DNA of 64,000 nucleotides from Patescibacteria group bacterium (GTDB taxonomy: Bacteria; Patescibacteriota; Saccharimonadia; CAILAD01; JADZBC01). Where the stretch lies: NCBI GenBank assembly GCA_052034495.1, contig JBPOIL010000003.1:18345-82344 (forward strand), in the 5' to 3' direction. Below, piece after piece: positions 6,088-45,444 of this stretch. The first letter of the stretch is position 1, and the number at the start of each line of letters is the position of its first letter. The translations under genes were made by a program, and so were the position numbers. The notes beneath the pieces were generated by a model. That model saw nothing but the letters and a program-made list of their open reading frames with translations. It searched no databases and had not been told where the DNA came from.

Positions 6088-6227
6088 GTCTTTGTAATGC
6101 TAATGCTTATAGGTTTGCTTTGCAAGTTAATATAGTTTGCCGACTTGAATGTTGGCTTAAAGTCACAATCAGAGACTATACAGAGTAGGCTTGGCATTGT
6201 CAAAGAGACATATAGTGTCCAAATGTA

Positions 6228-6256
6228 TTGACATTATCTATCAATTATTGTATCAT
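6228..6256 (+). promoter_or_regulatory. Sigma-70-type promoter (TTGACA, 17 nt spacer, TATCAT) upstream of the alpha-CTD-like gene
   Basis: TTGACA at 6228-6233 and TATCAT at 6251-6256 with a 17-nt spacer, about 44 nt upstream of the RBS AGGAGAAG and the ATG at 6300. Confidence 0.35.
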
Positions 6257-6299
6257 TCTGCTCAGTCCATGACCTATTGTCTATCTCGAAGGAGAAGCC

Positions 6300-6845
6300 A
6301 TGGAAGACCGAGATACCAGAATTGCGCGTCAAGCGCACGAAGCTGCCATCCGTTTGGCAGCAGAAGCATTCGTTGCCCTGGCAGCCGGCAAGGTTCCGCC
6401 AAGCTTGGAGTTCTCGGCGGACATCTTGTTCGTCGCCGACCTGGGGCTGAGCGACAAGCCCAGCCGCTTGTTGGCCGAGCAGGGCATCGAACTCGTCGGC
6501 GACCTGGTTCGCCACAGCGAGGACGACCTCCTCGTCATCATCGGCTTTGGGGAGAAGTCGCTCGATGAGGTGAGGGCCAGGCTCGCCGAGCACGAGCTCA
6601 CCCTGAAGGGCTCTGAGCTGCCTGCTCCGACTCCGGTGCAGAACCTGCGCTTCAGTGCTGTTGTGCTTCGGCGCTTCGCCAGGGGAACGTTCAGGCTCGA
6701 CGGTACGTACGTCCCCATCGAGACGGTCGAACAGCTCGTTCGGCTGTGCGCCGATGACCTCCTCACGATCCCCGGTTTCGGCCAGGCCTACCTCAGGCAG
6801 GTCGAACAGGTACTTGCCCGCCACGGCAAGTCCCTGCGCCAGTAG
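6300..6845 (+). CDS. Standalone protein made of two tandem RNA polymerase alpha-subunit C-terminal-domain-like (alpha-CTD) helix-hairpin-helix modules; high-GC islet gene
   Basis: RBS AGGAGAAG precedes the ATG. Both halves (LSDKPSRLLAEQGIELVGDLVRHSEDDLLVIIGFGEKSLDEVRARL and LRFSAVVLRRFARGTFRLDGTYVPIETVEQLVRLCADDLLTIPGFGQAYLRQVEQVL) resemble RpoA CTD (SVRSANCLK...GDLV...ELLK.PNLGKKSL.EI). GC3 is high on the + strand; the overlapping minus ORFs 6234-6824 and 6329-6766 are low-complexity antisense. Confidence 0.55.
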   Translation: MEDRDTRIARQAHEAAIRLAAEAFVALAAGKVPPSLEFSADILFVADLGLSDKPSRLLAEQGIELVGDLVRHSEDDLLVIIGFGEKSLDEVRARLAEHELTLKGSELPAPTPVQNLRFSAVVLRRFARGTFRLDGTYVPIETVEQLVRLCADDLLTIPGFGQAYLRQVEQVLARHGKSLRQ

Positions 6846-6874
6846 GTGGCACCTTCGCTTCAGGCGGACGATTC

Positions 6875-6904
6875 GATCGCTCCTCCTGGGGCGATCTTTC
6901 GTTT
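6875..6904 (+). terminator. Rho-independent terminator (GATCGC stem, tcctcctgg loop, GCGATC stem, then TTTCGTTT)
   Basis: Hairpin at 6875-6896 followed by a T-rich run, 30 nt after the stop of the 6300-6845 gene. Confidence 0.4.
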
Positions 6905-7763
6905 AAGAGGTCAAAACCCACTGGCCAGCGCCGATGTTCCGAACCTTGCCAGTTATTTCCATTAGGCTCAGCATGCCGGCGATCTTTTCGGCAGGAATGT
7001 CACTCTTTTCTATTAGGTCGTGCGTAGTATGGCTACCCGCATCTATGAGCTCCATGAGTCGCGCCTCTTCTGCAGAATCTGCCCTTCGCTTCTTTGGCTT
7101 TACTAACGTGCTTTGTAGGCCGAGTTCGGACAGTATATCTACTGCGTCTAGTACTGGCTTGGCGCCACATTTGAGTAAGTTATTTGGCCCCGCTGAGCGC
7201 GGGCTCGTGACGTTGCCAGGTACAGCCATGACCATGCGGTTCTCCTGCAGGGCGAAGTTGGCTGTAATAAGCGATCCGCTACTGGCGTTGGCTTCTGTAA
7301 TGACGGTAGCAAGGCTGAGTCCGGCAATTATCCTGTTGCGAGCCGGAAAGTTTTGCTTAAACGGTGTGGTGCCTTCGGGGTATTCACTTATAACGCCGCC
7401 GCCAGAAGCCACTATCGCTTTGAATAAGTGGAAGTTTGACCTGGGCGAAGGTGCGTCTAGGCCGCTCGCTAGAACCGCCACAGTCGCACCGCAAGCATCA
7501 AGCGCAGCCTGATGAGCAATTGCGTCTACCCCGAGTGCCATACCGCTTACTATGCATATACCTGCACGGGCTAGATCGTAGGCCAGCCGGTACGTTATTT
7601 GCTTGCCGTAGTCTGTAATTGCCCTACTCCCCACTATAGCTACCATTGGCAGATCAGGTACGTTGCCGACTACATATAGCTCCTTGGGCGGAGCCGCAAT
7701 ATCGCGCAAAAGAGCAGGATATTTGTTGCTATTGTATCGTATATATTGCATAGGATTATCCAT
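6903..7763 (-). CDS. dprA: DNA processing protein DprA (Smf)
   Basis: 286 aa; Rossmann-like DprA core with VVSGMALGVDAIAHQAALDACGATVAVLASGLD. Confidence 0.85.
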   Translation of the reverse strand: MDNPMQYIRYNSNKYPALLRDIAAPPKELYVVGNVPDLPMVAIVGSRAITDYGKQITYRLAYDLARAGICIVSGMALGVDAIAHQAALDACGATVAVLASGLDAPSPRSNFHLFKAIVASGGGVISEYPEGTTPFKQNFPARNRIIAGLSLATVITEANASSGSLITANFALQENRMVMAVPGNVTSPRSAGPNNLLKCGAKPVLDAVDILSELGLQSTLVKPKKRRADSAEEARLMELIDAGSHTTHDLIEKSDIPAEKIAGMLSLMEITGKVRNIGAGQWVLTS

Positions 7764-7813
7764 GATCTAACCTGTTAAGCATAAATAGTATAAAACTATC
7801 CCTGTAAAAAGTG

Positions 7814-7842
7814 TTGACAAAAGCACTAAGGTATGTTAGTAT
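7814..7842 (+). promoter_or_regulatory. Near-consensus sigma-70 promoter (TTGACA, 17 nt spacer, TAGTAT) firing into a gene-free intergenic region
   Basis: TTGACA at 7814-7819 and TAGTAT at 7837-7842; no + strand ORF downstream before the terminator at about 8100. Confidence 0.35.
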
Positions 7843-7845
7843 ACG

Positions 7846-8100
7846 TAGGCTCTTATAAAGCCATGTAAAAACGGCTCAAACGAGAGTGCACCTCACACAA
7901 AACTCACCTCATTATTGAAGTGAGTAATCTGCTCTCGAGGCTAAACCTAAAACTCACCCTCCTTTAGGTTCTCGGAGCAGATTACTCCCTTTAATTGCCA
8001 CGGTCTACTTATTACTATAGCGACTGCAAAATCCCAAACTTCGGGGGCATTAGAGGGTGTTAAAACGGACTCGACTCCTTTATTGAAGCGAGTCTTTTTT
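7846..8100 (+). ncRNA. Candidate structured small RNA of about 250 nt with unknown family
   Basis: Bounded by the 7814-7842 promoter and the 8068-8100 terminator. Contains an extended hairpin of about 80 nt (GAGTAATCTGCTCTCGAG at 7922-7939 pairing with CTCGGAGCAGATTACTC at 7972-7988, with an inner ACCTAAA/TTTAGGT stem) and a repeated motif TTATTGAAG[TC]GAGT (about 7908 and about 8079). No ORF is present. Confidence 0.25.
8068..8100. terminator. Intrinsic terminator (GACTCG stem, 15-nt loop, CGAGTC stem, then TTTTTT), probably bidirectional
   Basis: Stem at 8068-8073/8089-8094 with a T6 run on the + side; on the minus strand a TTTT run follows the hairpin downstream of the pth stop at 8151. 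Confidence 0.5.
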
Positions 8101-8150
8101 AATTCTAAAGTGTTCGCTTTTTGATTGCTAGTCTAGAAGGCAATTTTTGG

Positions 8151-8717
8151 TTAATCTTCCAAAACTGAGCGCGAAAGATGTTCAGCTCCATCAGTAATAA
8201 TCTCTGTAAGGATGTCGGTTGCTTCGGTGGCGATGGCTGGCAAATGTTTCTGCTCATAGGCACTGAACTTTTGCAGGACATAATCGCGCGCATCAGTCTG
8301 CCCTCGCTCGCTCCCCGCTATGCCGACTCGCAGGCGAACAAAGTCTTTCCCGACCGTCTCAATGATTGAACCGAGGCCGTTTTGCCCACCGCTACTACCC
8401 CCTATCCGCACACGCACCTTACCAAAGGTCAAATCCAGGTCATCCGAAACAACTACAACCTCCTCAAGTGGCACTTTGTAATACTGCATTAAGGCCATAA
8501 CTGCCTTGCCGCTCCGATTCATATAGGTATCTGGTTTAGCCAATATGACCTTATCTGCGCCAATGAGTGCCGTTGTGGTGTGAGCGAAGAACTTTGTTTG
8601 GTGCTGCCAGTTGGCATCGTGCCGATTGGCTAGCTCGTCAACTACCACGAAGCCGGCGTTGTGCCGTGTTTTTTCATATTCACTACCTACGTTGCCGAGC
8701 CCAACTACGAGCTTCAT
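8151..8717 (-). CDS. pth: Peptidyl-tRNA hydrolase
   Basis: 188 aa with MKLVVGLGNVGSEYEKTRHNAGF, the canonical Pth N-terminus; overlaps the der stop by 4 nt. Confidence 0.9.
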   Translation of the reverse strand: MKLVVGLGNVGSEYEKTRHNAGFVVVDELANRHDANWQHQTKFFAHTTTALIGADKVILAKPDTYMNRSGKAVMALMQYYKVPLEEVVVVSDDLDLTFGKVRVRIGGSSGGQNGLGSIIETVGKDFVRLRVGIAGSERGQTDARDYVLQKFSAYEQKHLPAIATEATDILTEIITDGAEHLSRSVLED

Positions 8718-10058: not shown

Positions 10059-10976
10059 TTATTCCCAGCGATATGTGGCGTAGGCAGTGTTTAGGAGCGT
10101 TCTGGTCTGGCCAAAACGATCATTGCTGCCGAGCATCACGCCTATTATCTCACGTCCGTCGCGTCGTGTCAGGCTTAGCAAGCATTGCCCAGCTTCTAGC
10201 GTGTAGCCAGTCTTGGTCCCAATCACGCCATTTCGGCCAAGCAATTGGTTAGTAGTGGCAAGATTATAGGTCTTTCCGGCGAGTGTTTTTACTGCCACTC
10301 TGGGCTGACTGGTGGCCTGGCGGAAGAAGTTGCTACGGAGCGCGATGGTAGCGAGGACTGTTAGATCCTGGGCAGTTGAATACGAACCTTGCTGACTAAG
10401 GCCGGTGGCATCGGTATAGCGCGTGTCTTTTAGGCCCCACTGAAGGGCTTGGTCGTTCATTTTATCTACAAAGGCCTGTTCGCTGCCGCTATCCCAAATA
10501 GCTAGCGCTACGGCCATGTCGTTAGCCGAGTATGTAAGCATGGCGGTCATAGCCTCTGAGAGGGTGAACTGCTCACCTGGCTGGACGTTCATGACCTGAC
10601 TGCCTGGGGGTTGCTGCGGCAGTGCGGGGATAGTTATCGTCTCGTCTAGACTGTGGTTCTGTAGTAATACCACGGCCGCCATGACCTTGGTGATTGATGC
10701 AATAGGCAGTCGGCTCGAAGTGTTCTTTTCGTAGAGTACCTTGGTGGAGTCAACGTCATAGAGCATGGCGGCTTTGTTGTCTTGCGACAGCGCAATTGTA
10801 CTATCTGCTACTGGTATCGCAGCGTAGGTGGCACCCAGGCTTTTTGTGCGTGGCGCCACGGTTTCTCTGGTCTCGGCAGCTCTTTGATTAACCGTGCTGT
10901 ACGCAGCATCAAGCGTTGCCGAAGCCGGCATTGCACCTTGTAAGGCGACTAGGAGCGCAGCGACGAGACTAAGCAT
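10059..10976 (-). CDS. D-alanyl-D-alanine carboxypeptidase (S11/PBP5-like serine peptidase), secreted
   Basis: Signal peptide MLSLVAALLVALQGAMPASA and the SxxK motif SITK. The ORF track's alternative start at 11030 would overlap the upstream gene by 62 nt, so the start at 10976 (8-nt overlap) is preferred. Confidence 0.7.
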   Translation of the reverse strand: MLSLVAALLVALQGAMPASATLDAAYSTVNQRAAETRETVAPRTKSLGATYAAIPVADSTIALSQDNKAAMLYDVDSTKVLYEKNTSSRLPIASITKVMAAVVLLQNHSLDETITIPALPQQPPGSQVMNVQPGEQFTLSEAMTAMLTYSANDMAVALAIWDSGSEQAFVDKMNDQALQWGLKDTRYTDATGLSQQGSYSTAQDLTVLATIALRSNFFRQATSQPRVAVKTLAGKTYNLATTNQLLGRNGVIGTKTGYTLEAGQCLLSLTRRDGREIIGVMLGSNDRFGQTRTLLNTAYATYRWE

Positions 10977-11661
10977 CCACAATCTCACTTGGCTTAATAA
11001 AGCGGTGAGCACCCGATTTGAGTACCCCAAGATCTAATCGGCCAATCTTGGTACGCTCAAGCATTTTTACTTTATACCCGAGGGCCTCAAACGTTCGGCG
11101 GATCTGTCGGTTGCGGCCTTCACTTAGAGTCACCCGGAGTAGTTGCGGCTTAATGCGCGATACGCTTTCGAACTTGCTTATCCCGTCATAGAGCTTGATT
11201 CCTTCGAGGAGTTTTGCTTGATCAGACTGCTGAATGGCCTTATCTACAAATACCATGTAAGTTTTTAGCTTACCTTGCGACGGGTGTGATATGGCTTGAA
11301 TAAACGCACCATCGGATGACAGCACCATGAGCCCTTGACTTTCTTTATCGAGTCGACCAGCGATTTTTAAGCCGGCAAAGCTAAGCGGCAGAAGATCAAA
11401 GATCGTCTTTTGGCGATCTGTTTGCGTCCGGTGTGTACACACATAGCCCACCGGCTTATTGAATGCCAAGTATACGTTCTCGCGCTTTTGCCCGGATCGG
11501 CCGAAGAGTGTAATGACGTCCTCGGCTCCCACCTGTGTTGCTAGCTTCGTGGTTACCGTACCATTAACACTTACTGCCCCTTGGGTAATCAGTTCGTCAG
11601 CCTTGCGCCTAGATGAAACCAGGCCTAGTTCTACAAGCTGTTTGTTGAGTCGAGTACTCAT
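10969..11661 (-). CDS. rRNA pseudouridine synthase (RsuA/RluB family) with an N-terminal S4 domain
   Basis: S4 motif LNKQLVELGLVSSRRKADELITQGAVSVNG and the catalytic GRLDKESQGLMVLSSDG. Confidence 0.8.
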   Translation of the reverse strand: MSTRLNKQLVELGLVSSRRKADELITQGAVSVNGTVTTKLATQVGAEDVITLFGRSGQKRENVYLAFNKPVGYVCTHRTQTDRQKTIFDLLPLSFAGLKIAGRLDKESQGLMVLSSDGAFIQAISHPSQGKLKTYMVFVDKAIQQSDQAKLLEGIKLYDGISKFESVSRIKPQLLRVTLSEGRNRQIRRTFEALGYKVKMLERTKIGRLDLGVLKSGAHRFIKPSEIVDA

Positions 11662-12143
11662 TGTTTGAGCTCCTTTAAATCTTTTACACCTGCTTGGAGC
11701 AGGAAGTCTTTGGTTGTTTCGTAGTAAGTTAGCTTAATTGGGTCATTTGGCTTGGTAATGCTACGCACAAGCCCAAGTGAGGCTAAGTTGCGAAGTGTTT
11801 GGTCGCTACTTACGCCGCGTATGTCATCGATATCTTGCTTGGTGCACGGTCCTGAATGGGCGACGATTGCTAGCACCTCAAGCATAGGCTGGCTTAATTG
11901 TTGTTTCTGTTCTGGCAGAAAGCCTTCTACCTCTGCGGAGACCGCGCTGTCCACCACTAGGGCGTAGACGTCCTTGTGCGAAAACACGGATACACCGCTA
12001 TCTTTGAGCCATGCCTCTAGTTTTGCTACTTCGGACTTGGTCGCCTCGCTATCTAGGTGCAGAAAGTCTGATAGCTCACTGAGCTTTACGCCGCTTGGCT
12101 GGGCGAATAATAGGGCGTGCAGTTTGGCCGTAGTTGGGTTCAT
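11658..12143 (-). CDS. scpB: Segregation and condensation protein B
   Basis: 161 aa; ScpB-type tandem winged-helix protein, 4-nt overlap with scpA. Confidence 0.8.
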   Translation of the reverse strand: MNPTTAKLHALLFAQPSGVKLSELSDFLHLDSEATKSEVAKLEAWLKDSGVSVFSHKDVYALVVDSAVSAEVEGFLPEQKQQLSQPMLEVLAIVAHSGPCTKQDIDDIRGVSSDQTLRNLASLGLVRSITKPNDPIKLTYYETTKDFLLQAGVKDLKELKQ

Positions 12144-12841
12144 GCGCTTGCCCCAGGGTAAATCATAAGTACCTTATCTGATGAATATTCAATTCGGGCA
12201 CGGTTAACTTTTGCTAGTTCTAAAATGGCTAAAAAGCTTAGTACCGCTTCGTGCTGGTTTTTACTCACCGCAATAAGCCGATCGAGCGAGAGTTGCCTGG
12301 CTTCTTGAAGTTGGTTAACGACCTGGCGCAGCACAGCGTCGAGCGACAACGGCTTTGTGCGGACGGTATGCCGTGCGGAGTTCTTCTGAGATTTGCGTTC
12401 ATTGACGTGTTCCCAGGCACTTCTGATCAAGCTTTTTGAAATGTCAAAGCCCTGTTTGCTACCGGCCCGCAGTTTAACACGTTTTGGCGGTCGGAGTAGG
12501 AATGGCGTGCGGGTGCGTTCTGCTAGTGCTGCAGCGAGGCCTCGATAATGCTGATAGCGCTCTAATCGACCTGCCAAGTCTTCTTCATTCGCATCTTCCT
12601 CTGCTGCCTGTGCTACCGGTAATACACGCCGACTTTTGGTCAGCAATAGCTGAGTCGCAATTGCAAGGAAGTGATTGACCTCATCTGGCTCCAGCTCTAT
12701 CGATCGAATATGCACAATGTAGCTTTGCGTGACTTGGCTTACTGCTACGTCGCGTATATCGAGCTTTTCACGCTCCACTAACTGGAGTAATAGATCGAGC
12801 GGCCCCTCGAAATTTTCTAGAAGTACCGTGTAATCTTGCAT
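12140..12841 (-). CDS. scpA: Segregation and condensation protein A
   Basis: 233 aa; ScpA/kleisin-like, directly upstream of and overlapping scpB. Confidence 0.8.
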   Translation of the reverse strand: MQDYTVLLENFEGPLDLLLQLVEREKLDIRDVAVSQVTQSYIVHIRSIELEPDEVNHFLAIATQLLLTKSRRVLPVAQAAEEDANEEDLAGRLERYQHYRGLAAALAERTRTPFLLRPPKRVKLRAGSKQGFDISKSLIRSAWEHVNERKSQKNSARHTVRTKPLSLDAVLRQVVNQLQEARQLSLDRLIAVSKNQHEAVLSFLAILELAKVNRARIEYSSDKVLMIYPGASA

Positions 12842-12858
12842 GTCCGCCCTACTCCAGC

Positions 12859-14259
12859 TTACGTTTTCTGTGGTCGTGATTGGATGCCTAGTTCACGCAG
12901 TTGTTCGGGGTTTGGTCCTGCCGGAGCCCCGAGCATCAAGTCTCGCATGTCTCCAGTCTTTGGGAAGGCAATAACATCTCGAATGGAAGATTCCTTCATC
13001 AGTACCATAATCAATCGGTCGAGTCCTGGAGCAAAACCTCCGTGTGGCGGAGCGCCGTAGGTAAAGGCTTTCATGAATGCACCAAAGCGCTCGTTCGTTT
13101 CGTCTTCACTCAGCCCCATCAGGCCAAAGACTTTGCGCTGCAATGCTGGGTCGTGGATACGCAGACTGCCAGATGAAATTTCGAAGCCATTGAGCACCAG
13201 GTCGTAGCAGTAAGCACGGACCTTGAGCCAGTCCTCAGGATTATCACTTTCAAGTAAGTGCAGGTCTTCATCTCGCGGGCGCGCAAATGGGTTATGGGCA
13301 AAGGTGATCTTGCCGGTGCTATCGCGTTCGAACATCGGGAAGTCAGTAATCCAAGCAAACGCTAGTTCGTCATCGTCTTTTTTGTCTTTGCGCAGGTCGG
13401 GCTTGTCGCTCTGGTACTTGGCCATTGCTTCGTCGTAAGTTAGGCGTTGGAAGCTTTCCGGAATCTTCTTGTCAGGCAACAGTTCGCTAATGACCTCGCG
13501 GAACATGTTCTCGTTTAGCTCCAGTATGTCCTCTTGGTCTACAAAGCTCATTTCCATATCTAGCTGGGTAAATTCTGGCTGGCGGTCTTGGCGTAAGTCT
13601 TCATCGCGGAAACATCGAGCAATTTGGTAGTAGCGCTCATAACCGGCAACCATGAGGAGCTGTTTAAACTGCTGCGGAGCTTGCGGCAGAGCATAAAAGT
13701 TCCCCTGGCTGAGTCGTGAGGGCACGATGAAGTCGCGAGCTCCTTCAGGGCTGCTTTTGGCTAGGATTGGTGTTTCAATTTCTATAAAGCCACGTGAATC
13801 CAGGTAGTCACGCAAAGCCTTTATAAAACGATGGCGGAATTTGATGTTGCGCTGCATGCGCTCGCTACGCAGGTCAAGATAGCGGTACTGCATACGGACT
13901 TCTTCGCCAGCCGGAGCATGTGTATCGTGGATCTCGAACGGCGGCGTTTGGGCTTGGTTGATTACCGTAATTTTGTCGGCACCGAGCTCTATTGTGCCTG
14001 TTGCCATATCGGGATTGACCATTCGTTCGGGGCGTTGCTTGACTAAGCCTTCGATCTGCACGACCGACTCGGGCTTAATGCGCTCGGCTAAGTCGCCGTC
14101 AGAGTCACTAAACTGGTATACGACTTGTACGGTCGCGCTAACATCGCGCACGTCCAAAAAGATAAGCTTACCGTGGTCACGGCGTACGCTTACCCAACCT
14201 TTAATAACAACTTGTTGATCAACCGAGTCGACCAACTCGGCAATTCGAGTTCGTTTCAT
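12859..14259 (-). CDS. aspS: Aspartate--tRNA ligase, short form without the GAD insertion domain
   Basis: Class II motif 2 CFRDEDLRQDRQPEFTQLDMEMSF is the bacterial AspRS signature. The product is 466 aa versus about 590 for canonical bacterial AspRS. Confidence 0.8.
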   Translation of the reverse strand: MKRTRIAELVDSVDQQVVIKGWVSVRRDHGKLIFLDVRDVSATVQVVYQFSDSDGDLAERIKPESVVQIEGLVKQRPERMVNPDMATGTIELGADKITVINQAQTPPFEIHDTHAPAGEEVRMQYRYLDLRSERMQRNIKFRHRFIKALRDYLDSRGFIEIETPILAKSSPEGARDFIVPSRLSQGNFYALPQAPQQFKQLLMVAGYERYYQIARCFRDEDLRQDRQPEFTQLDMEMSFVDQEDILELNENMFREVISELLPDKKIPESFQRLTYDEAMAKYQSDKPDLRKDKKDDDELAFAWITDFPMFERDSTGKITFAHNPFARPRDEDLHLLESDNPEDWLKVRAYCYDLVLNGFEISSGSLRIHDPALQRKVFGLMGLSEDETNERFGAFMKAFTYGAPPHGGFAPGLDRLIMVLMKESSIRDVIAFPKTGDMRDLMLGAPAGPNPEQLRELGIQSRPQKT

Positions 14260-34007: not shown

Positions 34008-34186
34008 GATCTCACCTCGATTCGGTGTAGTAGGTGCGTGATACCTGGCGCGCGCCAGATATCGGCATACTATACCATATGAATCAGTGCTGCCAAAGCA
34101 TAAGTGCCTGTAATCAGTTATTGCGTGGTTGGGATATATGTGGTAAAGTGTGCTTCCTGTTCACCATCCGAACAAAGGCGAATACG

Positions 34187-34456: not shown

Positions 34457-34480
34457 CGCGTCCAAACCGGTCGCTCCACC

Positions 34481-34530
34481 CCGCCCCGCGGTAGAGATTC
34501 GTCTCTCCTGCGGGGCGGTTCCCGTTATCG
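34481..34530 (+). terminator. Intrinsic terminator (CCGCCCCGC/GCGGGGCGG 9-bp stem then a T-rich tail)
   Basis: Located 25 nt after the stop at 34456. Confidence 0.4.
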
Positions 34531-34600
34531 TTCATTTACAAAGCTGTCTATTCCTGTTATTATGTATATCCATTTTAGTTCAGCCAAGGGGTATTTCAGT

Positions 34601-35030: not shown

Positions 35031-35080
35031 ACACCCGCTTGTCGGGGCGAATCCTCGCCCTAACGGGCGGGTTTTCGTTT
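35031..35080 (+). terminator. Nested GC-rich hairpin terminator (outer CCCGC/GCGGG, inner GGGCGA/TCGCCC, then TTTTCGTTTT)
   Basis: Lies between the stop of the 34601-35011 gene and the convergent metK stop at 35085. Confidence 0.45.
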
Positions 35081-35084: not shown

Positions 35085-36056
35085 TTATTTTTCCCAAGCA
35101 AACTCTTTGTGTCCGAAGTGTCCGTAGCGCGCCGTGGCTTCAAACTGCGGCTTCGTTAACTCAAGGACCTCAACAATGCCGCACGGCGACAGGTCGTATC
35201 CTACAATCTTTTCCTGAACGCCATCGATTAATACACTTGCTTCGAGGGGCTGATCGTGACCTATGGCGTATGCAAGCCTCGTAAATACCTCCTCGGCCCC
35301 GCGCGTACGTAAATAGTCGAGTGCAATCTTGCGTGCCATGTAGGCAGCCGAACGATCGACCTTACTTGCATCTTTGCCACTAAAGCAGCCACCGCCAATA
35401 GGAATACGCGGACCGTAGTTATCTACGACCAGCTTTCGGCCCGTAAGTCCGGTGTCAGCATCGAACCCGCCCTGCTGCCATTCGCCAGCTGGATTGGCAT
35501 GGATTTCAGGATTATCAATCGCATTCTTGTTGGTCAGCCAACTCGCGATAGAGGCTTTGAGTTCTTGAGTTTTTGAATTCTGAAAACTCGCCACTACGGC
35601 GATAATTTTGTCGTCCTGGAGGGTGACTTGAGTTTTGCCGTCATATGGCCATATGGCGTATAGGTACTGGTTGAGCTGGCGGCTCAACACAACCTCGAGC
35701 GGCAGGGCTTCGGGCGTCTCGGCGCAGGCATAGCCAATCATTATTCCCTGGTCTCCTGCTCCACCCGTATCAACGCACTGGGCAATTTCTGGGCTCTGGG
35801 CGACGATGTTCGTGGTGAGTGCAATGCCGCCTGCAATGCGCTTTGCAATTGGCACCACATCGACACTCGCCGAGCTGGTTACCTCGCCCATGATTACGAG
35901 CTGGCCGTGTCCACCGAGAGCCTCAACGGCGACGCGCGCCGTGGGGTCTTGAGCTAGGTAGGCATCCAGAATCGCGTCACTGATTTGGTCGCACAGTTTG
36001 TCGGGGTGTTTTGGGCTAACACTTTCGGCGGTTCGTAGGTTAGTTAGTTTGGTCAT
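35085..36056 (-). CDS. metK: S-adenosylmethionine synthetase
   Basis: The ATG at 36054-36056 follows AAAGGAG and eight nt (MTKLTNLRTAE...). Motif GGGCFSGKDASKVDRSAAYMARKIA matches MetK. The product is 323 aa, short for the family. Confidence 0.85.
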   Translation of the reverse strand: MTKLTNLRTAESVSPKHPDKLCDQISDAILDAYLAQDPTARVAVEALGGHGQLVIMGEVTSSASVDVVPIAKRIAGGIALTTNIVAQSPEIAQCVDTGGAGDQGIMIGYACAETPEALPLEVVLSRQLNQYLYAIWPYDGKTQVTLQDDKIIAVVASFQNSKTQELKASIASWLTNKNAIDNPEIHANPAGEWQQGGFDADTGLTGRKLVVDNYGPRIPIGGGCFSGKDASKVDRSAAYMARKIALDYLRTRGAEEVFTRLAYAIGHDQPLEASVLIDGVQEKIVGYDLSPCGIVEVLELTKPQFEATARYGHFGHKEFAWEK

Positions 36057-36119
36057 AAAAAATACTCCTTTCGTATCGTCCCCGCCACCGGCAGGAAAAA
36101 GGAGTTTAGCGCAAATGCA

Positions 36120-36226
36120 TACACTTATCTTTCCCACACTGGGCTAGAAGGGGCACCGTTCTGACTGTTCAGATGGTTGCCGGCAGGTCATAAAGCTAGA
36201 TCTCTCGCTGCACTCTTGATACTTGG
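36120..36226 (-). promoter_or_regulatory. SAM-I (S-box) riboswitch-like leader of metK
   Basis: The minus-strand leader reads ...AGUAUCAAGAG...CCUGCCGGCAACC...ACGGUGCC...GAAAGAUAAGU..., matching the S-box blocks CUUAUCAAGAG, CCCGGCAACC, GGUGCC and GAAAGAUGAG. Downstream, AAACUCCUUUUUCC can pair with the metK RBS AAAGGAG. Confidence 0.55.
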
Positions 36227-36341: not shown

Positions 36342-36698
36342 CTACGCCGTTCTGGTGAGCGGCTTGGGGAGCTGGCCCGAGTGCCCACGATCGCGCATGG
36401 TCTCGACCACGTTGGGCTGTTCGTAGACGTAGGGCATGACGTAGACCTTGAGGTGCAGCCTTGCGGTACCGCGGGGGCTGAGCTGGTTGGTCATCCCGGT
36501 CAGCGGAGCTTGGGCATCTTCGGCGAGAAGCTCACCGAAGAAGTGCTGCAAGGAGCGGACCTCCAGGTCCTTCAGGACCTTCATGGCTACGTCCGACGGA
36601 GGACGCTTGCTGTCGGGGTGATCCAGGTAGCTGCTCGCGATCTGGGCGATCAGTGGCGCGATCCCAAGGATCGCCGGTTCATCTGTGTACGTAGGCAT
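36342..36698 (-). CDS. High-GC islet gene: 118-aa hypothetical protein
   Basis: Minus-strand frame has GC3 of about 80%, whereas the overlapping + ORF 36330-36725 is Gly/Val/Arg-rich antisense-like sequence. A GC hairpin plus T-run follows on the minus strand at about 36285-36305. Confidence 0.45.
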   Translation of the reverse strand: MPTYTDEPAILGIAPLIAQIASSYLDHPDSKRPPSDVAMKVLKDLEVRSLQHFFGELLAEDAQAPLTGMTNQLSPRGTARLHLKVYVMPYVYEQPNVVETMRDRGHSGQLPKPLTRTA

Positions 36699-36851: not shown

Positions 36852-37301
36852 CTACTTCAGTACCAGTAGGACCGGTGGCTTGGACTCGAGTGCCAAGTCG
36901 GGAACGAGTGCCTGTAGATGCGTCCTGCCGTGCCGAACCACACGCTTGAAACCCTTGCTGGCAAAGAGCTGCTGATTGCACAGCCCATGCGCCGACTCTT
37001 TGATCGGGTTCGTGATGTTCGGCCTCATGAACACCTCGAAGATCTTCTCGGTGCGTGTTGCTTCAGCCTCATCAAGCATTCGCAAGCGTCCCATCCCGCA
37101 GTACAGAGGCTCCGAACGGGCATCGTGCACTACCTGGAGCAAGATTCGTACCACCAAGGTGGCATCGCGCCGACTGCACTTCACTTTTGCCTCGCGGCAC
37201 TCTCCTCGGATTGCCTTTGCAGCCTCCGGGAACAACTTGGGGTCGAATGTGCCGGTAGTCTCTCTGTATCTCTTCACCAAGATCTCCTCGGTCTCGCTCA
37301 C
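36852..37301 (-). CDS. High-GC islet gene: 149-aa hypothetical protein (GTG start)
   Basis: GTG at 37299-37301 (MSETEEILVKRY...); elevated GC3; the + strand ORFs 36918-37310 and 36976-37314 were rejected. Confidence 0.4.
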   Translation of the reverse strand: MSETEEILVKRYRETTGTFDPKLFPEAAKAIRGECREAKVKCSRRDATLVVRILLQVVHDARSEPLYCGMGRLRMLDEAEATRTEKIFEVFMRPNITNPIKESAHGLCNQQLFASKGFKRVVRHGRTHLQALVPDLALESKPPVLLVLK

Positions 37302-39995: not shown

Positions 39996-40107
39996 TAGCT
40001 GTATTATACCCTACTAGCGCAATCAGGGCTTGACCGCTATGGATATGGGCGTATACTAAATCCAACCCTGCTATTCGATGCAGGCTACCATGGAGGTGGC
40101 TTAGGCC

Positions 40108-40524
40108 ATGACCATCACCGAACCGGACGTCGCAACCGCGGCGACCATGCCCACCCCGTACCCCGACACCATCAGCCCCCGACCCACCATCGACCAGATC
40201 CGCAGCGCGATCATGAAGCAGACCGGCTGCAGCAAGCGTCGGGCTCGTCGCTTCATCGCCTTCCTGCGCGACCAGATCTCCTGCGCACGCAGCGAGGATG
40301 GCTACGGGCCGGTCCACCTCACGCAGGAGGAGATCGACGAGTTCCACCCGATGCTCGAGCTGGTCATGCCCGACGACACGGCGTCCACGCCGGGTTCCGC
40401 TCACGACCTGATCGAGCGCGGCCTGCTCAGCGCTCACCGCGGCGAGCTGTCCATCACCCACACCAAGGGCGGGCCGACGGCCGAGGACTGCGTCACCGTC
40501 GTCGAGGTCCACAAGGTCGGCTGA
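40108..40524 (+). CDS. High-GC islet gene: 138-aa hypothetical protein
   Basis: RBS GGAGGTGG nine nt before the ATG; GC3 above 90%; followed by a strong terminator. The minus-strand ORF 39973-40590 is an Arg/Gly/Asp-rich antisense artefact. Confidence 0.5.
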   Translation: MTITEPDVATAATMPTPYPDTISPRPTIDQIRSAIMKQTGCSKRRARRFIAFLRDQISCARSEDGYGPVHLTQEEIDEFHPMLELVMPDDTASTPGSAHDLIERGLLSAHRGELSITHTKGGPTAEDCVTVVEVHKVG

Positions 40525-40556
40525 TCGAAGTCGGCTGGGCTCTACCACGAGCCTCG

Positions 40557-40598
40557 ATGAGAGCCCCAATGCTCTTGTCGGGGCTCTCATTCGTTTCT
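40557..40598 (+). terminator. Intrinsic terminator (ATGAGAGCCCC, 12-nt loop, GGGGCTCTCAT, then TCGTTTCTG)
   Basis: 11-bp stem located 33 nt after the stop at 40524. Confidence 0.55.
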
Positions 40599-40999: not shown

Positions 41000-41081
41000 A
41001 TTCTCCAACGAACCACTAAGCTCCGTTCGGGGCTCTTTTCGTGAACTCGATTTTATCTACCATAAGCGTTATACTTACATC

Positions 41082-41576
41082 ATGAAACGGCGCAAAAGCA
41101 GCGGGCGGCGCAGCCTCCAGCCGACGACATTTAGCTACCTGCTTATTGGTTTGCAGATTATGTTGATGATCGCGGTTTTATACTTCCCGGGCCGACGTGA
41201 GGGCGGCGCACATATTCTGCTTGCAAACATGATGCGTGTAGTCGGCGTGGGCATGGTGCTCTTGGCCCTTTGGCAGTTGCGCAAGTTCTCGCTTACCGCC
41301 CTGCCAGAACCGGTTAAGAATGCCAAGCTGCTGACGCGCGGGCTGTACACGCGCATGCGCCACCCAGTATATAGTGGCATTATGCTTTGGGGTCTCGGTA
41401 CGTTAATTATCCGCCCAAGTATCGCTCGCTTTGGCCTATATGCTGCTTTGGTACTACTGTTTTGGTATAAATCAGGGCGTGAAGAGCGCATGCTCGAGGC
41501 AACGTTTGGATCCCGCTACGCACGGTATAAGCTTAATACACCGCGCTTTATTCCGCGTAGAAATACTAAAAACTAA
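41082..41576 (+). CDS. Isoprenylcysteine carboxyl methyltransferase (ICMT/PEMT-like) family membrane protein
   Basis: GLYTRMRHPVYSGIMLWGLG...EERMLEATFGSRYARY conserved motif set with four or five TM helices. Confidence 0.75.
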   Translation: MKRRKSSGRRSLQPTTFSYLLIGLQIMLMIAVLYFPGRREGGAHILLANMMRVVGVGMVLLALWQLRKFSLTALPEPVKNAKLLTRGLYTRMRHPVYSGIMLWGLGTLIIRPSIARFGLYAALVLLFWYKSGREERMLEATFGSRYARYKLNTPRFIPRRNTKN

Positions 41577-41594
41577 TCTTGTTTAATTGGCGCT

Positions 41595-42071
41595 TTAGCC
41601 GATCTTGATGCCTGGCTCAGTTTGTGAGTCAGGTTTTTTCGAGTCTTTCGATGCCTTGAGCTCTAGGCCGACTTCTTGCATATCCTCCACTGCAGCTTCG
41701 TGGTATTTTTCCTGGTTGCGTCCATAATGCCTTGTGGCCTTGCTGAGCTCTCTGTTGTAGTCTTGTTGCCTTTCCGTAACCAGCTCAGCTGCAGCTCTGG
41801 CATCTTGCTCCATCCTGGGCTCTAGTTTTGCCTTTGATTCGGCCTCTGCTTTGAGCGCTATTTGCTGTTGCCGGGGGTCTTTGAAGTTGGTCATAGCTGA
41901 CTGTACTCTGGCTTCTTGGCGAGCATGGATATGGTCATGTGACTGTTCGGTTGCTACTTGCCGCGCCTGCGCCGCGTCCAACTTTGCACTTGTAAATCTG
42001 TGCATACCATAAAGCATTCTCGCTTTGCGCTGGAATCGACTTCTCCTCCACTCCTGAAATCGCTTGAACAT
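41595..42071 (-). CDS. Hypothetical coiled-coil protein (158 aa, Q/E/K/R-rich)
   Basis: ORF in backbone GC with no recognised motif. Confidence 0.4.
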   Translation of the reverse strand: MFKRFQEWRRSRFQRKARMLYGMHRFTSAKLDAAQARQVATEQSHDHIHARQEARVQSAMTNFKDPRQQQIALKAEAESKAKLEPRMEQDARAAAELVTERQQDYNRELSKATRHYGRNQEKYHEAAVEDMQEVGLELKASKDSKKPDSQTEPGIKIG

Positions 42072-42113
42072 AGTTTGGGCCCTCCGTTTGTCGTAATTAT
42101 AGCATTAAATGAG

Positions 42114-42149
42114 GAAGGCCCGTTCTGCGCTGAAACAGAACGGGCCTTC
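42114..42149 (-). terminator. Strong hairpin terminator (GAAGGCCCGTTCTG, loop, CAGAACGGGCCTTC)
   Basis: 14-bp perfect stem located 23 nt downstream of the islet gene stop at 42172; a T-rich tract follows on the minus strand. Confidence 0.5.
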
Positions 42150-42171
42150 GAGGTTGTACTGCTCGACTTCG

Positions 42172-42558
42172 CTACCGGGGCTCGAACATCACCCCGAGGC
42201 TCCAGTGGCAGAACCACTTGCCCATGACCAGGTCCTTGCTGTGGACGAACGGTCGATCCGCGGGAGCAAGCTGGTTGAGCGCAGCGTGTGCGGTTGCCGG
42301 CTTGGCCACAGCGCCATCGGGCATGATGCGCGTGAGCACCGGGTGGATCAGCAGCATCTGCGGGATGGTCATGCGACCATGGCAGCCGCGCTTGGTGCGA
42401 TCTTCGGCGAAGAACAGGGTCAGCCGGGCGCGAACCCAGCCGCACTGGCCGTCGCGCTTGATCAGGCTGATGATCTCGGCACGTGAGTAGGCGTGCGACT
42501 GCACGGCGCGGGTATGAGCGGCTGTGACCGCCGTTTGGCGATCCAGGATTGCGGTCAA
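42172..42558 (-). CDS. High-GC islet gene: 129-aa hypothetical protein (TTG start)
   Basis: TTG at 42556-42558 preceded by GCAGGAGGT and six nt (MTAILDRQTAVTAAH...). The track's upstream TTG at 42582 has no spacer after its putative RBS. Confidence 0.45.
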   Translation of the reverse strand: MTAILDRQTAVTAAHTRAVQSHAYSRAEIISLIKRDGQCGWVRARLTLFFAEDRTKRGCHGRMTIPQMLLIHPVLTRIMPDGAVAKPATAHAALNQLAPADRPFVHSKDLVMGKWFCHWSLGVMFEPR

Positions 42559-42637
42559 GGTGTTACCTCCTGCAAATACCAACCCCCTCTGGGTTAGTGT
42601 GTTTTATACTACTCCTATACGGCGGGCAGTCAAGGTG

Positions 42638-42943
42638 TTAGTCGCGCGAACGTGGCATGAGTGCGGAGAGTGCCCAGCCAGCCAGAACATATAGACCTAT
42701 GGCAATGGGTATAACGATATTGAAGCCACTTGGCAGGGCTTTGGGCAGGCTAATGTACTGATCGAGCCAGGAAACTGGAATGAGCAGTACGGTGCTCCAG
42801 CTGTAAATTAGGCTTGTAAGTTTGCCTTCCGGGCTACGGCCAAATAGGTCGTAAGCAAAGCGTAGGAGCAACGTGGCGACAGAGCTGGCCACAAAGATCC
42901 AGATGATGCCACCGAGTATTCCGCTATTTGATCGTCGATTCAT
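42638..42943 (-). CDS. Small membrane protein (101 aa, two or three TM helices)
   Basis: Internal ATG at 42941-42943 (MNRRSNSGILGGIIWIFVASS...). The 5' extension of the track ORF runs into the high-GC islet on the wrong strand and is out-of-frame-like sequence. Confidence 0.4.
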   Translation of the reverse strand: MNRRSNSGILGGIIWIFVASSVATLLLRFAYDLFGRSPEGKLTSLIYSWSTVLLIPVSWLDQYISLPKALPSGFNIVIPIAIGLYVLAGWALSALMPRSRD

Positions 42944-42960
42944 AGTACTAGTATAGCAGT

Positions 42961-43052: not shown

Positions 43053-43328
43053 TCAGGCCGCTCGCGACTCGTCCCATGGCATATCCATGGGTGTGTCGGG
43101 GTCGGGTTCTGGCGAGTAGTCGTGCTGTTCCTTGCCGAGCCTCCAGGAGGCCCAGCTGAAGAACGCGCAGCAGGCTGCGCAGAACACGAATGCGAGCAGG
43201 CCCGTGAGCGTGCCGACCATCGCCCCGCCGTTGCCACTGGCATCGACGGTGTTGCGGTCCTCGCTGAAGAGCAGGACGAAGGCCATGAGGCCGAAGCCAA
43301 CTGCTGCGATACGTGCTGCTTGTGCCAT
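43053..43328 (-). CDS. High-GC islet gene: 91-aa two-TM membrane protein
   Basis: ATG at 43326-43328 with a strong RBS AAGGAGGTG; MAQAARIAAVGFGLMAFVLLF...LTGLLAFVFCAACCAFF. Confidence 0.5.
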   Translation of the reverse strand: MAQAARIAAVGFGLMAFVLLFSEDRNTVDASGNGGAMVGTLTGLLAFVFCAACCAFFSWASWRLGKEQHDYSPEPDPDTPMDMPWDESRAA

Positions 43329-43543
43329 GCGGCACCTCCTTGTTTGGTGCGGGTTTGGAGCCCGCGACGACTTGCCGGCGGACACCGAACTTGTATATTC
43401 TAGCATAAGCATAAGCATTTGTCAATATATCTGGCAACTGTGATGTCCTGGTTGTGCTTGTTATTCTTAGCACTGGAAGCTATAACTAAATCACAGTACG
43501 CAATCGGCGGCTGGAAGGTACCTTCGATCACATAGGAGTAGCC

Positions 43544-44233
43544 ATGGAGCTGACAAGCATGGAGAAAAGACGGCGGGCTTGGGCCGCAGAGCAGGACCCA
43601 CCACTGGTCACAGTGCAACAGGTGGCCGAGATGCTGGGTCACCAGCGCGGTACGTACGTGCGGCGGATCATGGCACATTACGAGGTCCCTCATCTGCTCT
43701 CTGACTCCAGGGACGCGGATTTCCGAGAGGGCGACGGCTACTATCCATTGCTGGAGGCTCGAGCCGCAGTGGGTAAGTACTTGGTCGATAGGCCACGTAT
43801 GCCCGGTACCCGAACCGCTGGTCCGAAGCCGGCAAGTGCGCTTACCCGCCTGGGTGGCGTGACTGTGCCGTTGTCGGCTCCGCACGGTTGGACCCTCGAT
43901 CAGCTCAAAATCTGCTGGAAGGATTCCCCAGACATGCGGGGCGTCGTTGAGCAGATCTACGAGCGTTGTCCGTCCTTTACGCAACTGACCTTCGAGGAGG
44001 CCAAGGCCTTGGTTGTGGACTTGGCGCAACCAGACATGGCCCCGCAGCTGATGCATCCGCCCTACGAGCGAAGCGACTTCATGCGGGCCGCGAGAGAGCT
44101 GACTCGCGGCAAGCCGGATGAGCTCGCGCAGCTGACGAGGGTGTTGGAGGGCAAGTTCCACCTGCGCAACTTCTGCAGGATCAACCCGGGTCCGGCCGTG
44201 GCCGTCGTCCTCGAGCTCCTGCGCAGCAAGTAG
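43544..44233 (+). CDS. High-GC islet gene: 229-aa protein with an N-terminal HTH (excisionase/AlpA-like)
   Basis: RBS AGGAG; LVTVQQVAEMLGHQRGTYVRRIMA helix-turn-helix; terminator at 44266-44299. Confidence 0.5.
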   Translation: MELTSMEKRRRAWAAEQDPPLVTVQQVAEMLGHQRGTYVRRIMAHYEVPHLLSDSRDADFREGDGYYPLLEARAAVGKYLVDRPRMPGTRTAGPKPASALTRLGGVTVPLSAPHGWTLDQLKICWKDSPDMRGVVEQIYERCPSFTQLTFEEAKALVVDLAQPDMAPQLMHPPYERSDFMRAARELTRGKPDELAQLTRVLEGKFHLRNFCRINPGPAVAVVLELLRSK

Positions 44234-44302
44234 CGCCGACAACCGAATAAGGGAAGTTCTTCACTCCCCTGGCGAATCACCGCCAGGGGGTTCGTTTTTA
44301 CA

Positions 44303-44338
44303 CAAACAAAAGCACCTCCCCGAAGGCAGGTGCTTTTG
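44303..44338. terminator. Bidirectional terminator (AAAA, GCACCT, ccccgaaggc loop, AGGTGC, then TTTT)
   Basis: Flanked by an A-run and a T-run; sits between the convergent genes 43544-44233 (+) and 44367-44858 (-). Confidence 0.45.
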
Positions 44339-44366
44339 CACTGCCCCCGAAGAGGTGTGGTGCCGG

Positions 44367-44858
44367 CTAGGCCAGCTGACCGACGAGAACTCTCGATGGC
44401 TCTTCGTCGAAGTGGTACTTGGCATCGGCCACGATGAACCCGAGCTCTCGAGTCAGAAAGCTCCCGATCTTGTGCTGGCCCGGATTCGGGATCAGCTCTT
44501 GCTGGTATGCCTCGTCCATGGTGGCCAAGAACGCTTCTCGCAGCAAGTTCCTCATGTTCGGCTGCATGCCGTCCACGAAGAACCGAGCCGCTGCATGTGG
44601 TGCCAGTTCAGGACTGCTCGCGTCGATCCGGCCAAGGATCTTCAGCAGGATGTCGATGACACCCGATGTGTAGCTCTCCCAGGTCTTCTCGCGGAAGTTC
44701 TCCGTGATGATGCGGTACGCCGCCGCCTTGTTGTCCGGACTCATGCCAGACTTGATCACCCTCAGCCCAAGGGCAAGGGCGTTCCAGTCAATGGACAGTT
44801 CAGGCGCCTTTGCGGGCGCCATGGTTGCTGTGGTCACAATGATCCTTTCAGGAATCAT
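44367..44858 (-). CDS. High-GC islet gene: ~155-163-aa hypothetical protein
   Basis: High GC3 on the minus strand. Start ambiguous between the track ATG at 44858 and an ATG about 12 codons downstream. Confidence 0.45.
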   Translation of the reverse strand: MIPERIIVTTATMAPAKAPELSIDWNALALGLRVIKSGMSPDNKAAAYRIITENFREKTWESYTSGVIDILLKILGRIDASSPELAPHAAARFFVDGMQPNMRNLLREAFLATMDEAYQQELIPNPGQHKIGSFLTRELGFIVADAKYHFDEEPSRVLVGQLA

Positions 44859-44984
44859 AGTCGGATTCGAACCGTATTATTATAACCTAATATTTCGACA
44901 ATTACAACTTAGTGTTGGGTTAAAACGAAAACCATCCCCCCGAAGGATGGATAATTTCCGTCCTCGGGAGGATGTTGGCCGGCC

Positions 44985-45369
44985 CCCTACACGTAGGTAC
45001 CGGAGAACTCGCCGGCGGCGTCGAGCAGCGCGGCTGCCAGGTTGCCCAACGCGAGCTTGGCGACCCACTCGTTGGCCTCACTGGTGTGGCCCAGGACCTC
45101 TCGGTCCATGACCTTCTGTAGGGCGTCGACCCCATGATGCCAGCGATGATCTCGGTCGGCATGTCGTGACCTGCCATGTCGATCTCGTAGCGCTGCAGGT
45201 CGTTCATGACGTTCGCCTCCTCCCCTTCCGGGAAGGATGCCACGAGCTCTGCCCTGACCAACAGGCCGCTGCCCTTGATCTCGAAGATCTTGATCAGCGG
45301 CTGGTGGTGCTCGCAGAAGTGCCCTTCGATGTGGACCTGGAATTCGGGTACTGCGGTTGCATCTGCCAT
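44985..45369 (-). pseudogene. High-GC islet gene (~127 aa) interrupted by a frameshift at a G4 homopolymer
   Basis: ATG at 45367-45369 with RBS AGGAGAGACAG. The frame reads MADATAVPEFQVHIEGHFCEHHQPLIKIFEIKGSG...EIIAGIMG with high GC3. At GGGG (45130-45133 on the coding strand) the high-GC3, protein-like continuation (VDALQKVMDREVLGHTSEANEWVAKLALGNLAAALLDAAGEFSGTYV*) moves to another frame, while the original frame becomes P/S/R/W-rich. One extra G would restore the reading frame. Confidence 0.45.
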
Positions 45370-45444
45370 CTGTCTCTCCTGGATTGATTCGGGTGTGGCG
45401 AATGGGATTACAAGTATACGAGGATAATTAGAATATGTCAATAC

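Follow-up and report, generated by a model that had tools for sequence, protein, structure and literature searches.

The 64,000-nucleotide stretch of DNA analysed here (the window) spans positions 18,345 to 82,344 of the forward strand of contig JBPOIL010000003.1, from a Patescibacteria group bacterium (GenBank assembly GCA_052034495.1), and carries about fifteen small GC-rich genes, each of 58-68% GC, that lie in short islets among housekeeping genes of lower GC content. The backbone around these islets encodes topoisomerase I, DprA, EngA, aminoacyl-tRNA synthetases, MetK, ribonucleotide reductase, MreB and MurA. A search with MetK (35085-36137) returned 80 loci, nearly all of them titled as metagenome-assembled genomes (MAGs) of Saccharibacteria or Saccharimonadales, the closest being loci L006 (86% identical) and L007 (79% identical), in agreement with the initial annotation of this DNA, which had raised the possibility of a Saccharibacteria-like backbone from the sequence alone. 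Saccharibacteria live as epibionts with reduced genomes, and little is known of the genes through which they interact with their hosts.

A sliding profile in 300-nt windows recovers all ten islets named in that annotation, with peaks of 0.627-0.690 GC (z = 3.7-5.5) against a mean of 0.502 ± 0.034 in non-islet windows (n = 172), and thereby reproduces the sharp setting of the islets in a lower-GC backbone. Several of the annotated values require correction: the backbone has 50% GC rather than about 48%; whole islets have 0.586-0.656 GC; the islet placed at 20.7-21.6 kb starts at about 21.05 kb, and that at 34.2-35.1 kb is weak, with a third-position GC content (GC3) of 0.62-0.63. In total the islets amount to 9.2 kb, or 23% of the interval 6190-45420, at 60.3% GC versus 50.0% elsewhere in the interval and 51.5% in the entire window. 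One open reading frame (ORF) per islet stands out by its frame-specific GC, in the order GC3 > GC1 > GC2; best-frame GC3 is 0.62-0.92 in the islets (median about 0.78) and 0.43-0.66 in backbone genes, so that the values of roughly 80-95% first reported do not hold throughout, 40108-40524 alone reaching 0.92. The dinucleotide signature of the islets also departs from that of the backbone (delta* = 99.8, against 22.8 ± 7.0 in equally large samples of backbone), and TpA is strongly depleted (0.56 in the islets versus 0.93 in the backbone). Structured RNA was rejected as a source of the GC richness, as no Rfam family matches within the islets; the Rfam matches in the window are two tRNAs and a SAM riboswitch (RF00162, 50.7 bits; 36122-36225, minus strand) upstream of metK, which abuts the 36.2 kb islet and accounts for part of the left shoulder of that islet.

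Each islet is composed of one or a few monocistronic units, namely a predicted sigma-70-type promoter, often a Shine-Dalgarno sequence, an ORF of 80-230 aa (confirming the sizes initially given) and an intrinsic terminator. Promoters and terminators were called by consensus scans and direct reading, and are predictions. Between 30.5 and 46.5 kb, where near-consensus TTGACA-N17-TATAAT promoters stand 5' of the cassettes, there are 27 promoter-like sites versus 10.1 expected and 26 terminator-like sites versus 14.9 expected; a hairpin with a TTTTCGTTTT-type T-tract follows most cassettes, though not every islet as had been stated, and matches the terminators of backbone genes in style. GGAGG-type Shine-Dalgarno sequences, described earlier as general, precede about half of the likely starts, which are mostly ATG and only in some cases the GTG or TTG emphasized before. 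Because several maximal ORFs overrun their own promoter, the true starts are placed downstream of the 5' ends of these ORFs, at the six likely start codons listed in Table 1. The 100 nt 5' of islet genes have a mean GC of only about 0.46, and thus the GC-rich part consists of the ORF and the terminator stem. Segments that vary between strains carry promoter, ORF and terminator as one block. The called genes of matching contigs, which cover 5.8-12.2 kb and 30.9-50 kb, include none with a Pfam match to an integrase or transposase, as the initial annotation had noted of the islets, and no repeat family common to the cassette ends was found. An integron or a mechanism based on shared terminal repeats was therefore rejected, the islets differing from integron cassettes also in having their own promoters, in lying on both strands and in being dispersed.

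Such sharp compositional borders might point to an artefact, either a chimeric co-assembly of Saccharibacteria with high-GC organisms or a deliberate, engineered insertion, both of which had been offered as alternatives. However, the same islets occur in the same context at 98-100% identity in four independent assemblies from different samples (JGI 3300043411 and Logan SRR12712864, SRR24011137 and SRR34217545), which excludes both. Exact copies of islet proteins with the same neighbours are found on a 20.6-kb JGI contig, a 12.1-kb Logan contig and shorter Logan contigs from two other projects, and the DNA identity of independent contigs to the window is 98.3-99.6% across several islets. Diverged forms of the islets fill the same slots in other MAGs, and the islet ORFs are under purifying selection; the probability that we leave to an artefact is negligible.

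Comparison with relatives indicates that the islets are old residents of their slots, not recent insertions absent from related genomes. In L006 and L007 the slots used in the window also contain GC islets, of 63-66%, and most islets have positional orthologues in L006, L007, L087 and L170, only a few cassettes being present or absent between strains. Because the same intergenic slots are filled in genomes whose MetK is 79-86% identical, the islets predate these lineages. For the islets at 6-27 kb the slot comparison was made with one identical contig, the metagenome relatives of the neighbouring ABC-F gene (19003-20664) being all at most 55% identical. Between islet proteins and their positional orthologues identity is 27-69% (Table 1), compared with 76-92% for the flanking DUF2779, FKBP, NTPase, PEMT and MetK proteins. 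The ratio of nonsynonymous to synonymous substitution rates (dN/dS) is 0.23-0.76 for islet genes (0.76 for 44920-45441 versus strain L001) and 0.01-0.09 for backbone genes, indicating that the islet ORFs are real coding genes on which either constraint is loose or diversifying pressure acts. Across four relatives, median GC3 is 0.71 for genes lacking a Pfam match and 0.56 for those that have one (p = 3e-6), the former spreading broadly from 0.46 to 0.92.

Islet alleles are distributed against the backbone phylogeny. The gene of the A2 family (described below) in L170 is 78% identical to that of the window, though DUF2779 is 69% and PEMT 62% identical, whereas the L006 A2 gene is 27% identical, though DUF2779 is 89% identical. 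In the 32.4-33.0 kb slot, strain L001 has an allele that is 86% identical to that of L006 and 50% to that of the window, while directly to its right the L001 DNA matches the window at 98% identity; in the same near-identical strain, 43544-44233 is swapped for an allele that is 35% identical. Entire cassettes are also gained or lost between strains of 98-99.6% identity: where the window has positions 41557-42638, L001 has 30 bp; L001 and L002 alone carry, between the FKBP and PEMT genes, a 590-bp cassette with a product 62% identical to an L006 gene at a different place; and a 1.06-kb GC-rich cassette (261-aa ORF) at the spot defined by tRNA-Glu and 45958-45976 occurs in L001 only. The PEMT gene itself (41014-41562) has 88% DNA identity to L001 and L002, beside 98-99.6% directly to its left, and homologous recombination thus also imports segments of core genes.

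On this evidence we hold, with a probability of roughly 0.6, that the islets represent a Saccharibacteria-internal pool of moron-like accessory cassettes that are swapped by natural transformation and recombination in their flanks. The cassettes would make up the flexible genes of an environmental Saccharibacteria clade, each being a self-contained unit that occupies a set intergenic position in a syntenic core backbone and encodes a small, fast-evolving protein of a family that, where traceable, appears confined to Saccharibacteria. They would be gained, lost and replaced by divergent alleles circulating among Saccharibacteria lineages, probably by natural transformation (ComEC, DprA) and subsequent homologous recombination within the conserved genes on either side, and their high GC would travel with the pool instead of marking a recent import from Actinobacteria. 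Experiments have demonstrated natural competence in Saccharibacteria, as well as ComEC-dependent insertion of a cassette via flanks of about 545 bp (PMC10633639). DprA is encoded at 6903-7763 of the window, and the mosaic pattern of identity, with blocks replaced between conserved genes, is consistent with transformation and subsequent recombination in the flanks.

One islet family could be traced beyond the immediate clade. The products of 40108-40524 and 42172-42582 are paralogues in a new small-protein family, here called A2, with the invariant residues C41, H99, H118 and C128. A profile search of 1.84 billion proteins yielded 309 representatives at E <= 1e-3, with lengths of 96-194 aa, and all 20 matches that were looked up derive from metagenomes or MAGs. 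The genome contexts inspected are CPR-like (candidate phyla radiation) or Saccharibacteria-like in 11 of 11 cases, with a locus GC of 0.43-0.54; L175 is of uncertain taxon, and those that are labelled or alignable are Saccharibacteria. Synteny with the window is seen in several contexts, a cytochrome oxidase operon occurs in one, and in three (L177, L178 and L183) the A2 gene is the only GC islet among its neighbours. Twelve A2 genes from these 11 contexts have a GC content of 0.58-0.70 and a GC3 of 0.75-0.93, uncorrelated with locus GC (r = 0.06), across proteins that are only 25-40% identical. In L182 the A2 member (8001-8414) lies about 2.4 kb downstream of a Patescibacteria conjugation-type type IV secretion cluster (418-5632; TrbC, TrbL, TraC-like, VirB4, CHAP). 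In L175, a contig of 50% GC that also carries MFS genes, a gene with a WhiB-family domain (Pfam Whib; 10638-11132) lies 2.2 kb from the A2 member; the WhiB family is known mainly from Actinobacteria and their phages, and, if the contig belongs to Saccharibacteria, this gene would be a genuine candidate for host-to-epibiont transfer.

The initial annotation had described the codon usage of the islets as actinobacterial. Their usage is indeed of a foreign-looking, high-GC kind, as is their dinucleotide signature, and their relative synonymous codon usage correlates with that of mycobacteriophage L5 at r = 0.91, as against r = 0.56 with the backbone. It is not diagnostic of Actinobacteria, however, because a Ralstonia plasmid of 60% GC, used as a control, gives r = 0.87; the codon usage is thus generic for high GC, and was rejected as evidence for Actinobacteria. 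GC3 also increases across codon classes from SS to WW, but this was dropped as a sign of selection against AT runs, since mycobacteriophage L5 shows the same increase. Translational selection is an unlikely cause of the high GC3 and was rejected, because EF-Tu, L2 and RpoB have a locus-typical, ordinary GC3 in contigs of about 50% GC (unlabelled, probably Saccharibacteria).

The codon usage had been part of the case for repeated, fairly recent transfer into the epibiont from an actinobacterial host or actinophage, for example by uptake of host DNA or by injection from a host phage. Besides the resemblance to mycobacteriophage L5, the GC3 of 0.75-0.93 and the depletion of TA, this explanation could draw on the natural competence of Saccharibacteria (PMC10633639), on a host prophage that can bind TM7x and, to a limited degree, infect it (PMC13578794), and on an excess of changes from G or C to A or T (S->W) in one islet gene, which suggests drift towards backbone composition after import. 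Against it, comparison of all 17 islet proteins by tblastn with 50,697 phage genomes, including thousands of actinophages, gave no match, and relatives of the two families tested in IMG/VR, A2 and 43544-44233, were absent there, these searches not extending to actinobacterial chromosomes under taxonomic labels. Syntenic orthologues occur in long-diverged genomes; the A2 contexts are of CPR type, at 43-54% GC, in every case; the near-consensus, AT-rich -35/-10 promoters and T-tract terminators are backbone-like; the codon usage is equally close to that of the Ralstonia plasmid; and a GC-rich tandem ThyX gene of L006 and L007 lacks an actinophage relative. Repeated transfer from host or actinophage is therefore unsupported, given the shared slots, the lack of phage matches, the CPR-like contexts of A2 and the generic codon usage, and we judge it improbable. 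The cassette pool may nevertheless have an ancient actinobacterial origin.

The direction of third-position changes bears on where the GC richness comes from. These changes were polarised with close-outgroup triplets only, each calibrated by simulation, distant outgroups being dropped because a GC-rich outgroup biases parsimony towards S->W. Backbone genes are balanced, with 142 S->W versus 141 W->S changes. Islet genes are skewed towards S->W, and a stricter count for 44367-44858 gives 12 S->W versus 2 W->S (P about 0.003 in a stationarity simulation), a hint that the islets are losing GC in place, which favours an external GC-rich source. Conversely, alleles that are only 27-35% identical are still at GC3 0.8-0.9, which, together with the mid-GC contexts of A2 in 11 of 11 cases, argues for long residence in Saccharibacteria with GC retained. 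As the source of the GC richness we tentatively consider an unsampled GC-rich reservoir, for instance a mobile element or a different lineage, whose DNA would erode slowly once it had arrived; active maintenance in place through selection on the coding sequence is a possibility to which we lend somewhat less belief.

In its full form, an explanation by maintenance in place would hold that the islet genes are native and that a gene-specific force keeps their GC high, be it selection on synonymous sites or transcripts (for which mRNA stability, avoidance of AT-rich target sites or expression in a particular life-cycle state could be examples) or GC-biased gene conversion at recombination hot spots. 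The A2 genes keep their high GC3 regardless of genome GC, positional orthologues do so at 27-35% identity, the richness is limited to ORF and terminator, and the loci are demonstrable recombination hot spots, all of which would be expected under such a force. Yet EF-Tu, L2 and RpoB have a GC3 like that of other genes, with no sign of translational selection for codons ending in G or C; the flanking genes, which would serve as recombination arms, have no GC gradient; the S->W skew of the islets is unlike a stationary selected state; and no known mechanism targets a family of small genes. We regard native genes under such a force as unlikely. It is very improbable that the cassettes are host-interface genes of the epibiont tuned to the high-GC cell of the host and held by selection at an actinobacterium-like composition, perhaps delivered via the conjugation-type type IV secretion system of Patescibacteria (near which the A2 member of L182 lies) and expressed there, which, if true, would make them a counterpart of T-DNA in parasitism of a bacterium on a bacterium.

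Returning to the pool of cassettes exchanged within Saccharibacteria, several points weigh against it. A2 alone was traced beyond the clade, so that the conclusion is extended to all islets by extrapolation; the library that supplied the 309 A2 matches carries no taxonomy, the genome contexts inspected number 11, and one of these is the L175 contig of uncertain taxon with its WhiB and MFS genes. Pooled over islet genes, third-position changes are 25 S->W versus 9 W->S, and such erosion sits awkwardly with GC3 values of 0.8-0.9 across alleles of 27-35% identity unless a reservoir or selection is at work. Finally, among 72,556 plasmids the sole match to an islet protein is that of the zinc-ribbon protein (17301-17543), which over about 55 aa is 57-60% identical to the products of small hypothetical genes carried by megaplasmids of Ralstonia and Burkholderia, the megaplasmid homologue sitting in an array of small unannotated genes; because of these proteobacterial relatives, the cassette pool is not strictly closed.

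The islets resemble several known kinds of accessory DNA. Phage morons are extra transcription units in the genomes of lambdoid and other phages, and the islets share with them one ORF equipped with a separate promoter and factor-independent terminator (here predicted from sequence), insertion between genes that are adjacent in relatives (the FKBP-PEMT cassette, 41557-42638 and the HIT/tRNA-Glu cassette), a composition unlike that of their neighbours and the lack of a mobility gene of their own. Unlike morons, they lie on a bacterial chromosome among housekeeping genes with no phage genes nearby, are GC-richer than their surroundings and swap divergent alleles at fixed slots. In the latter respect they are like the flexible islets and hypervariable replacement loci of transformable bacteria, with which they share fixed slots, deep allele divergence beside near-identical flanks, alleles distributed against the backbone phylogeny and a competent organism; those loci, however, mostly comprise several genes for surface structures or restriction-modification and have a GC no higher than that of the core, whereas the islets are single small genes 10-18 GC points above it. 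Like ORFans, the islet genes are short, have a dN/dS of 0.2-0.8, lack a Pfam family and are narrowly distributed, but they are markedly GC-richer and at least one family, A2, has more than 300 diverged members. Integrase-borne islands at tRNA genes also have atypical composition, and the 42-45.4 kb region adjoins tRNA-Glu and a 17/19 copy of the tRNA 3' end; unlike such islands, the islets have no integrase and no clear flanking direct repeats, measure 0.4-2.5 kb and lie mostly far from tRNA genes. The islets are variations of known kinds (flexible islets, morons and orphan genes) in which the direction and persistence of the GC offset are unusual.

In bacteria, orphan genes and genes of recent acquisition usually have a higher AT content than the host core. 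The GC offset observed here runs opposite to that rule, and at this locus the flexible genome of Saccharibacteria is recognisable by composition alone. For A2 to hold a GC3 near 0.8-0.9 in genomes of 43-54% GC, there must be either a GC-rich reservoir, so far unsampled, that is linked to Saccharibacteria or a selective constraint on coding-sequence composition that has gone unrecognised, and either answer would be informative on the evolution of these parasites. Exchange of small, fast-evolving genes, each predicted to be transcribed individually, without mobility genes would fit the experimentally shown competence of these bacteria, and the cassettes constitute a shortlist of candidate genes for host interaction or conflict.

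Table 1. Cassettes and related features of the window, with predicted signals and protein identity to positional orthologues
Position	Strand	Feature	Composition and predicted signals	Identity to positional orthologue
6300-6845	+	RNA polymerase alpha C-terminal domain (alpha-CTD)-like cassette; 181-aa stand-alone protein with helix-hairpin-helix motifs	GC 0.63, GC3 0.78	
17301-17543	-	Zinc-ribbon gene, 80 aa, CxxC...CxxC	GGAGG Shine-Dalgarno, GTG start	
17571-17879	-	Small ORF upstream of zinc-ribbon gene; 87 aa from likely start	GC3 0.68; likely GTG start 17834	
21107-21604	-	165-aa ORF cassette	GC 0.66, GC3 0.85	
26231-26722	-	Membrane-protein-like cassette	GC3 0.81; likely ATG 26665 after GGAGGAG	
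31533-32255	+	226-240-aa ORF cassette	GC3 0.71; likely GTG start 31575	32% (L006 and L007)
32387-32971	+	194-aa protein cassette with lysine-rich N-terminal tail	GC3 0.85	about 48-50% (L006), 69% (L007)
34034-34456 and 34562-35011	+	Two weaker islet genes, clade-specific	GC3 0.62-0.63; terminator 35054-35071	
36342-36698	-	118-aa ORF cassette	GC3 0.81; promoter 36773-36745; terminator 36314-36290	35% (L006), 32% (L007); both orthologues GC3 0.84-0.85
36852-37301	-	149-aa ORF cassette	GC3 0.72; promoter 37354-37326; terminator 36812-36793	56% (L007)
40108-40524	+	A2 family cassette, 138 aa	GC 0.68, GC3 0.92; promoter 40030-40057; GGAGG; terminator 40549-40586	27% (L006)
42172-42582	-	A2 paralogue; 128 aa from likely start	GC3 0.80; likely TTG start 42558	
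43053-43418	-	Membrane-protein-like cassette	GC3 0.75; likely ATG 43328 after AAGGAGG	
43544-44233	+	229-aa ORF cassette	GC3 0.76; terminator 44265-44290	35% (L006)
44367-44858	-	163-aa ORF cassette	GC3 0.76	
44920-45441	-	Cassette with likely ATG start	GC3 0.72; likely ATG 45369; promoter 45441-45413; terminator 44950-44932	
45958-45976		Partial copy of tRNA-Glu 3' end, 19 nt (17/19 bases), 135 nt from tRNA-Glu(CUC) gene 46112-46187		

Searches of PHROGs, PADLOC, NCBIfam and Pfam assign no function to the islet proteins other than the alpha-CTD/helix-hairpin-helix domain of 6300-6845 and weak PHROG matches of the zinc-ribbon protein; ten islet proteins tested against the anti-phage defence models of PADLOC gave no match. 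The three weak PHROG matches obtained are to families of unknown function, two for the zinc-ribbon protein (phrog_3805 and phrog_22461) and one for the product of 6300-6845. The latter matches Pfam RNA_pol_A_CTD (E = 2e-16) and HHH_5, and NCBIfam in the C-terminal region of rpoA only. A terminator hairpin lies 3' of the gene at about 6870-6900, the gene is identical in the Logan contigs L004 and L005, and a word search of 5.8 billion proteins found no relatives beyond its own cluster. The zinc-ribbon gene is the second of a two-gene GC islet, with a terminator hairpin directly downstream, and the 87-aa form of the ORF upstream of it is the cluster representative P0015. The product of 21107-21604 matches no family in Pfam or PHROGs and is 31% identical to that of a GC-rich ORF of L007 (17764-18243). 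By eye, from their hydrophobic stretches, the products of 26231-26722 and 43053-43418 look like small membrane proteins; 43053-43418 is 93% identical in L001 and 35% identical in L086. The product of 31533-32255 has hydrophobic stretches at its end and a tail rich in Cys, Arg and His.

The segment 32387-32560 encodes a tail of about 50 residues with KKSKK repeats, in which nearly all lysines are specified by AAG, and which resembles the tails of histone H1 and nucleoid-associated proteins. Between two islets lies an extra sigma-70-family gene (33114-34007, minus strand; 297 aa, GC3 0.65) that is present in L001 and L002; it may be accessory too, because tblastn found no match in the syntenic loci of L006 and L007. 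The products of the two genes at 34034-35011 are 53-57% identical to their L007 counterparts. The A2 gene at 40108-40524 sits between the DUF2779 and FKBP genes. Its paralogue at 42172-42582 is inverted relative to it, present in L002 and absent from L001, and the similarity of the two reaches into the 3' flank (inverted repeats I1 and I3). The partial tRNA-Glu copy lies just past the HIT gene, close to the right-hand border of the hypervariable region at 42-45.4 kb, and is a possible scar left by an old attachment site or site-specific integration.

Further GC-rich genes were observed in the relatives. L006 (18112-19737) and L007 (18389-20026) carry a gene of GC3 0.76-0.80 for a protein of 541-545 aa with two tandem ThyX (Thy1) domains, which has no counterpart in the window; its only phage relatives are tandem ThyX genes of Tunturiibacter and Microcystis phages (24-28% identical), with none among actinophages. 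In L086, a GC-rich two-gene module near the hypervariable region (11055-13549), encoding a 577-aa HATPase_c_3 protein (GC3 0.80) followed by a 254-aa protein, may be an accessory module of the defence type. In the window itself, outside the range flagged initially, an ORF of 450 aa without a Pfam match (53224-54576, minus strand) includes a segment of 61% GC with strong positive GC skew (53640-54020) that may be a further compositional islet.

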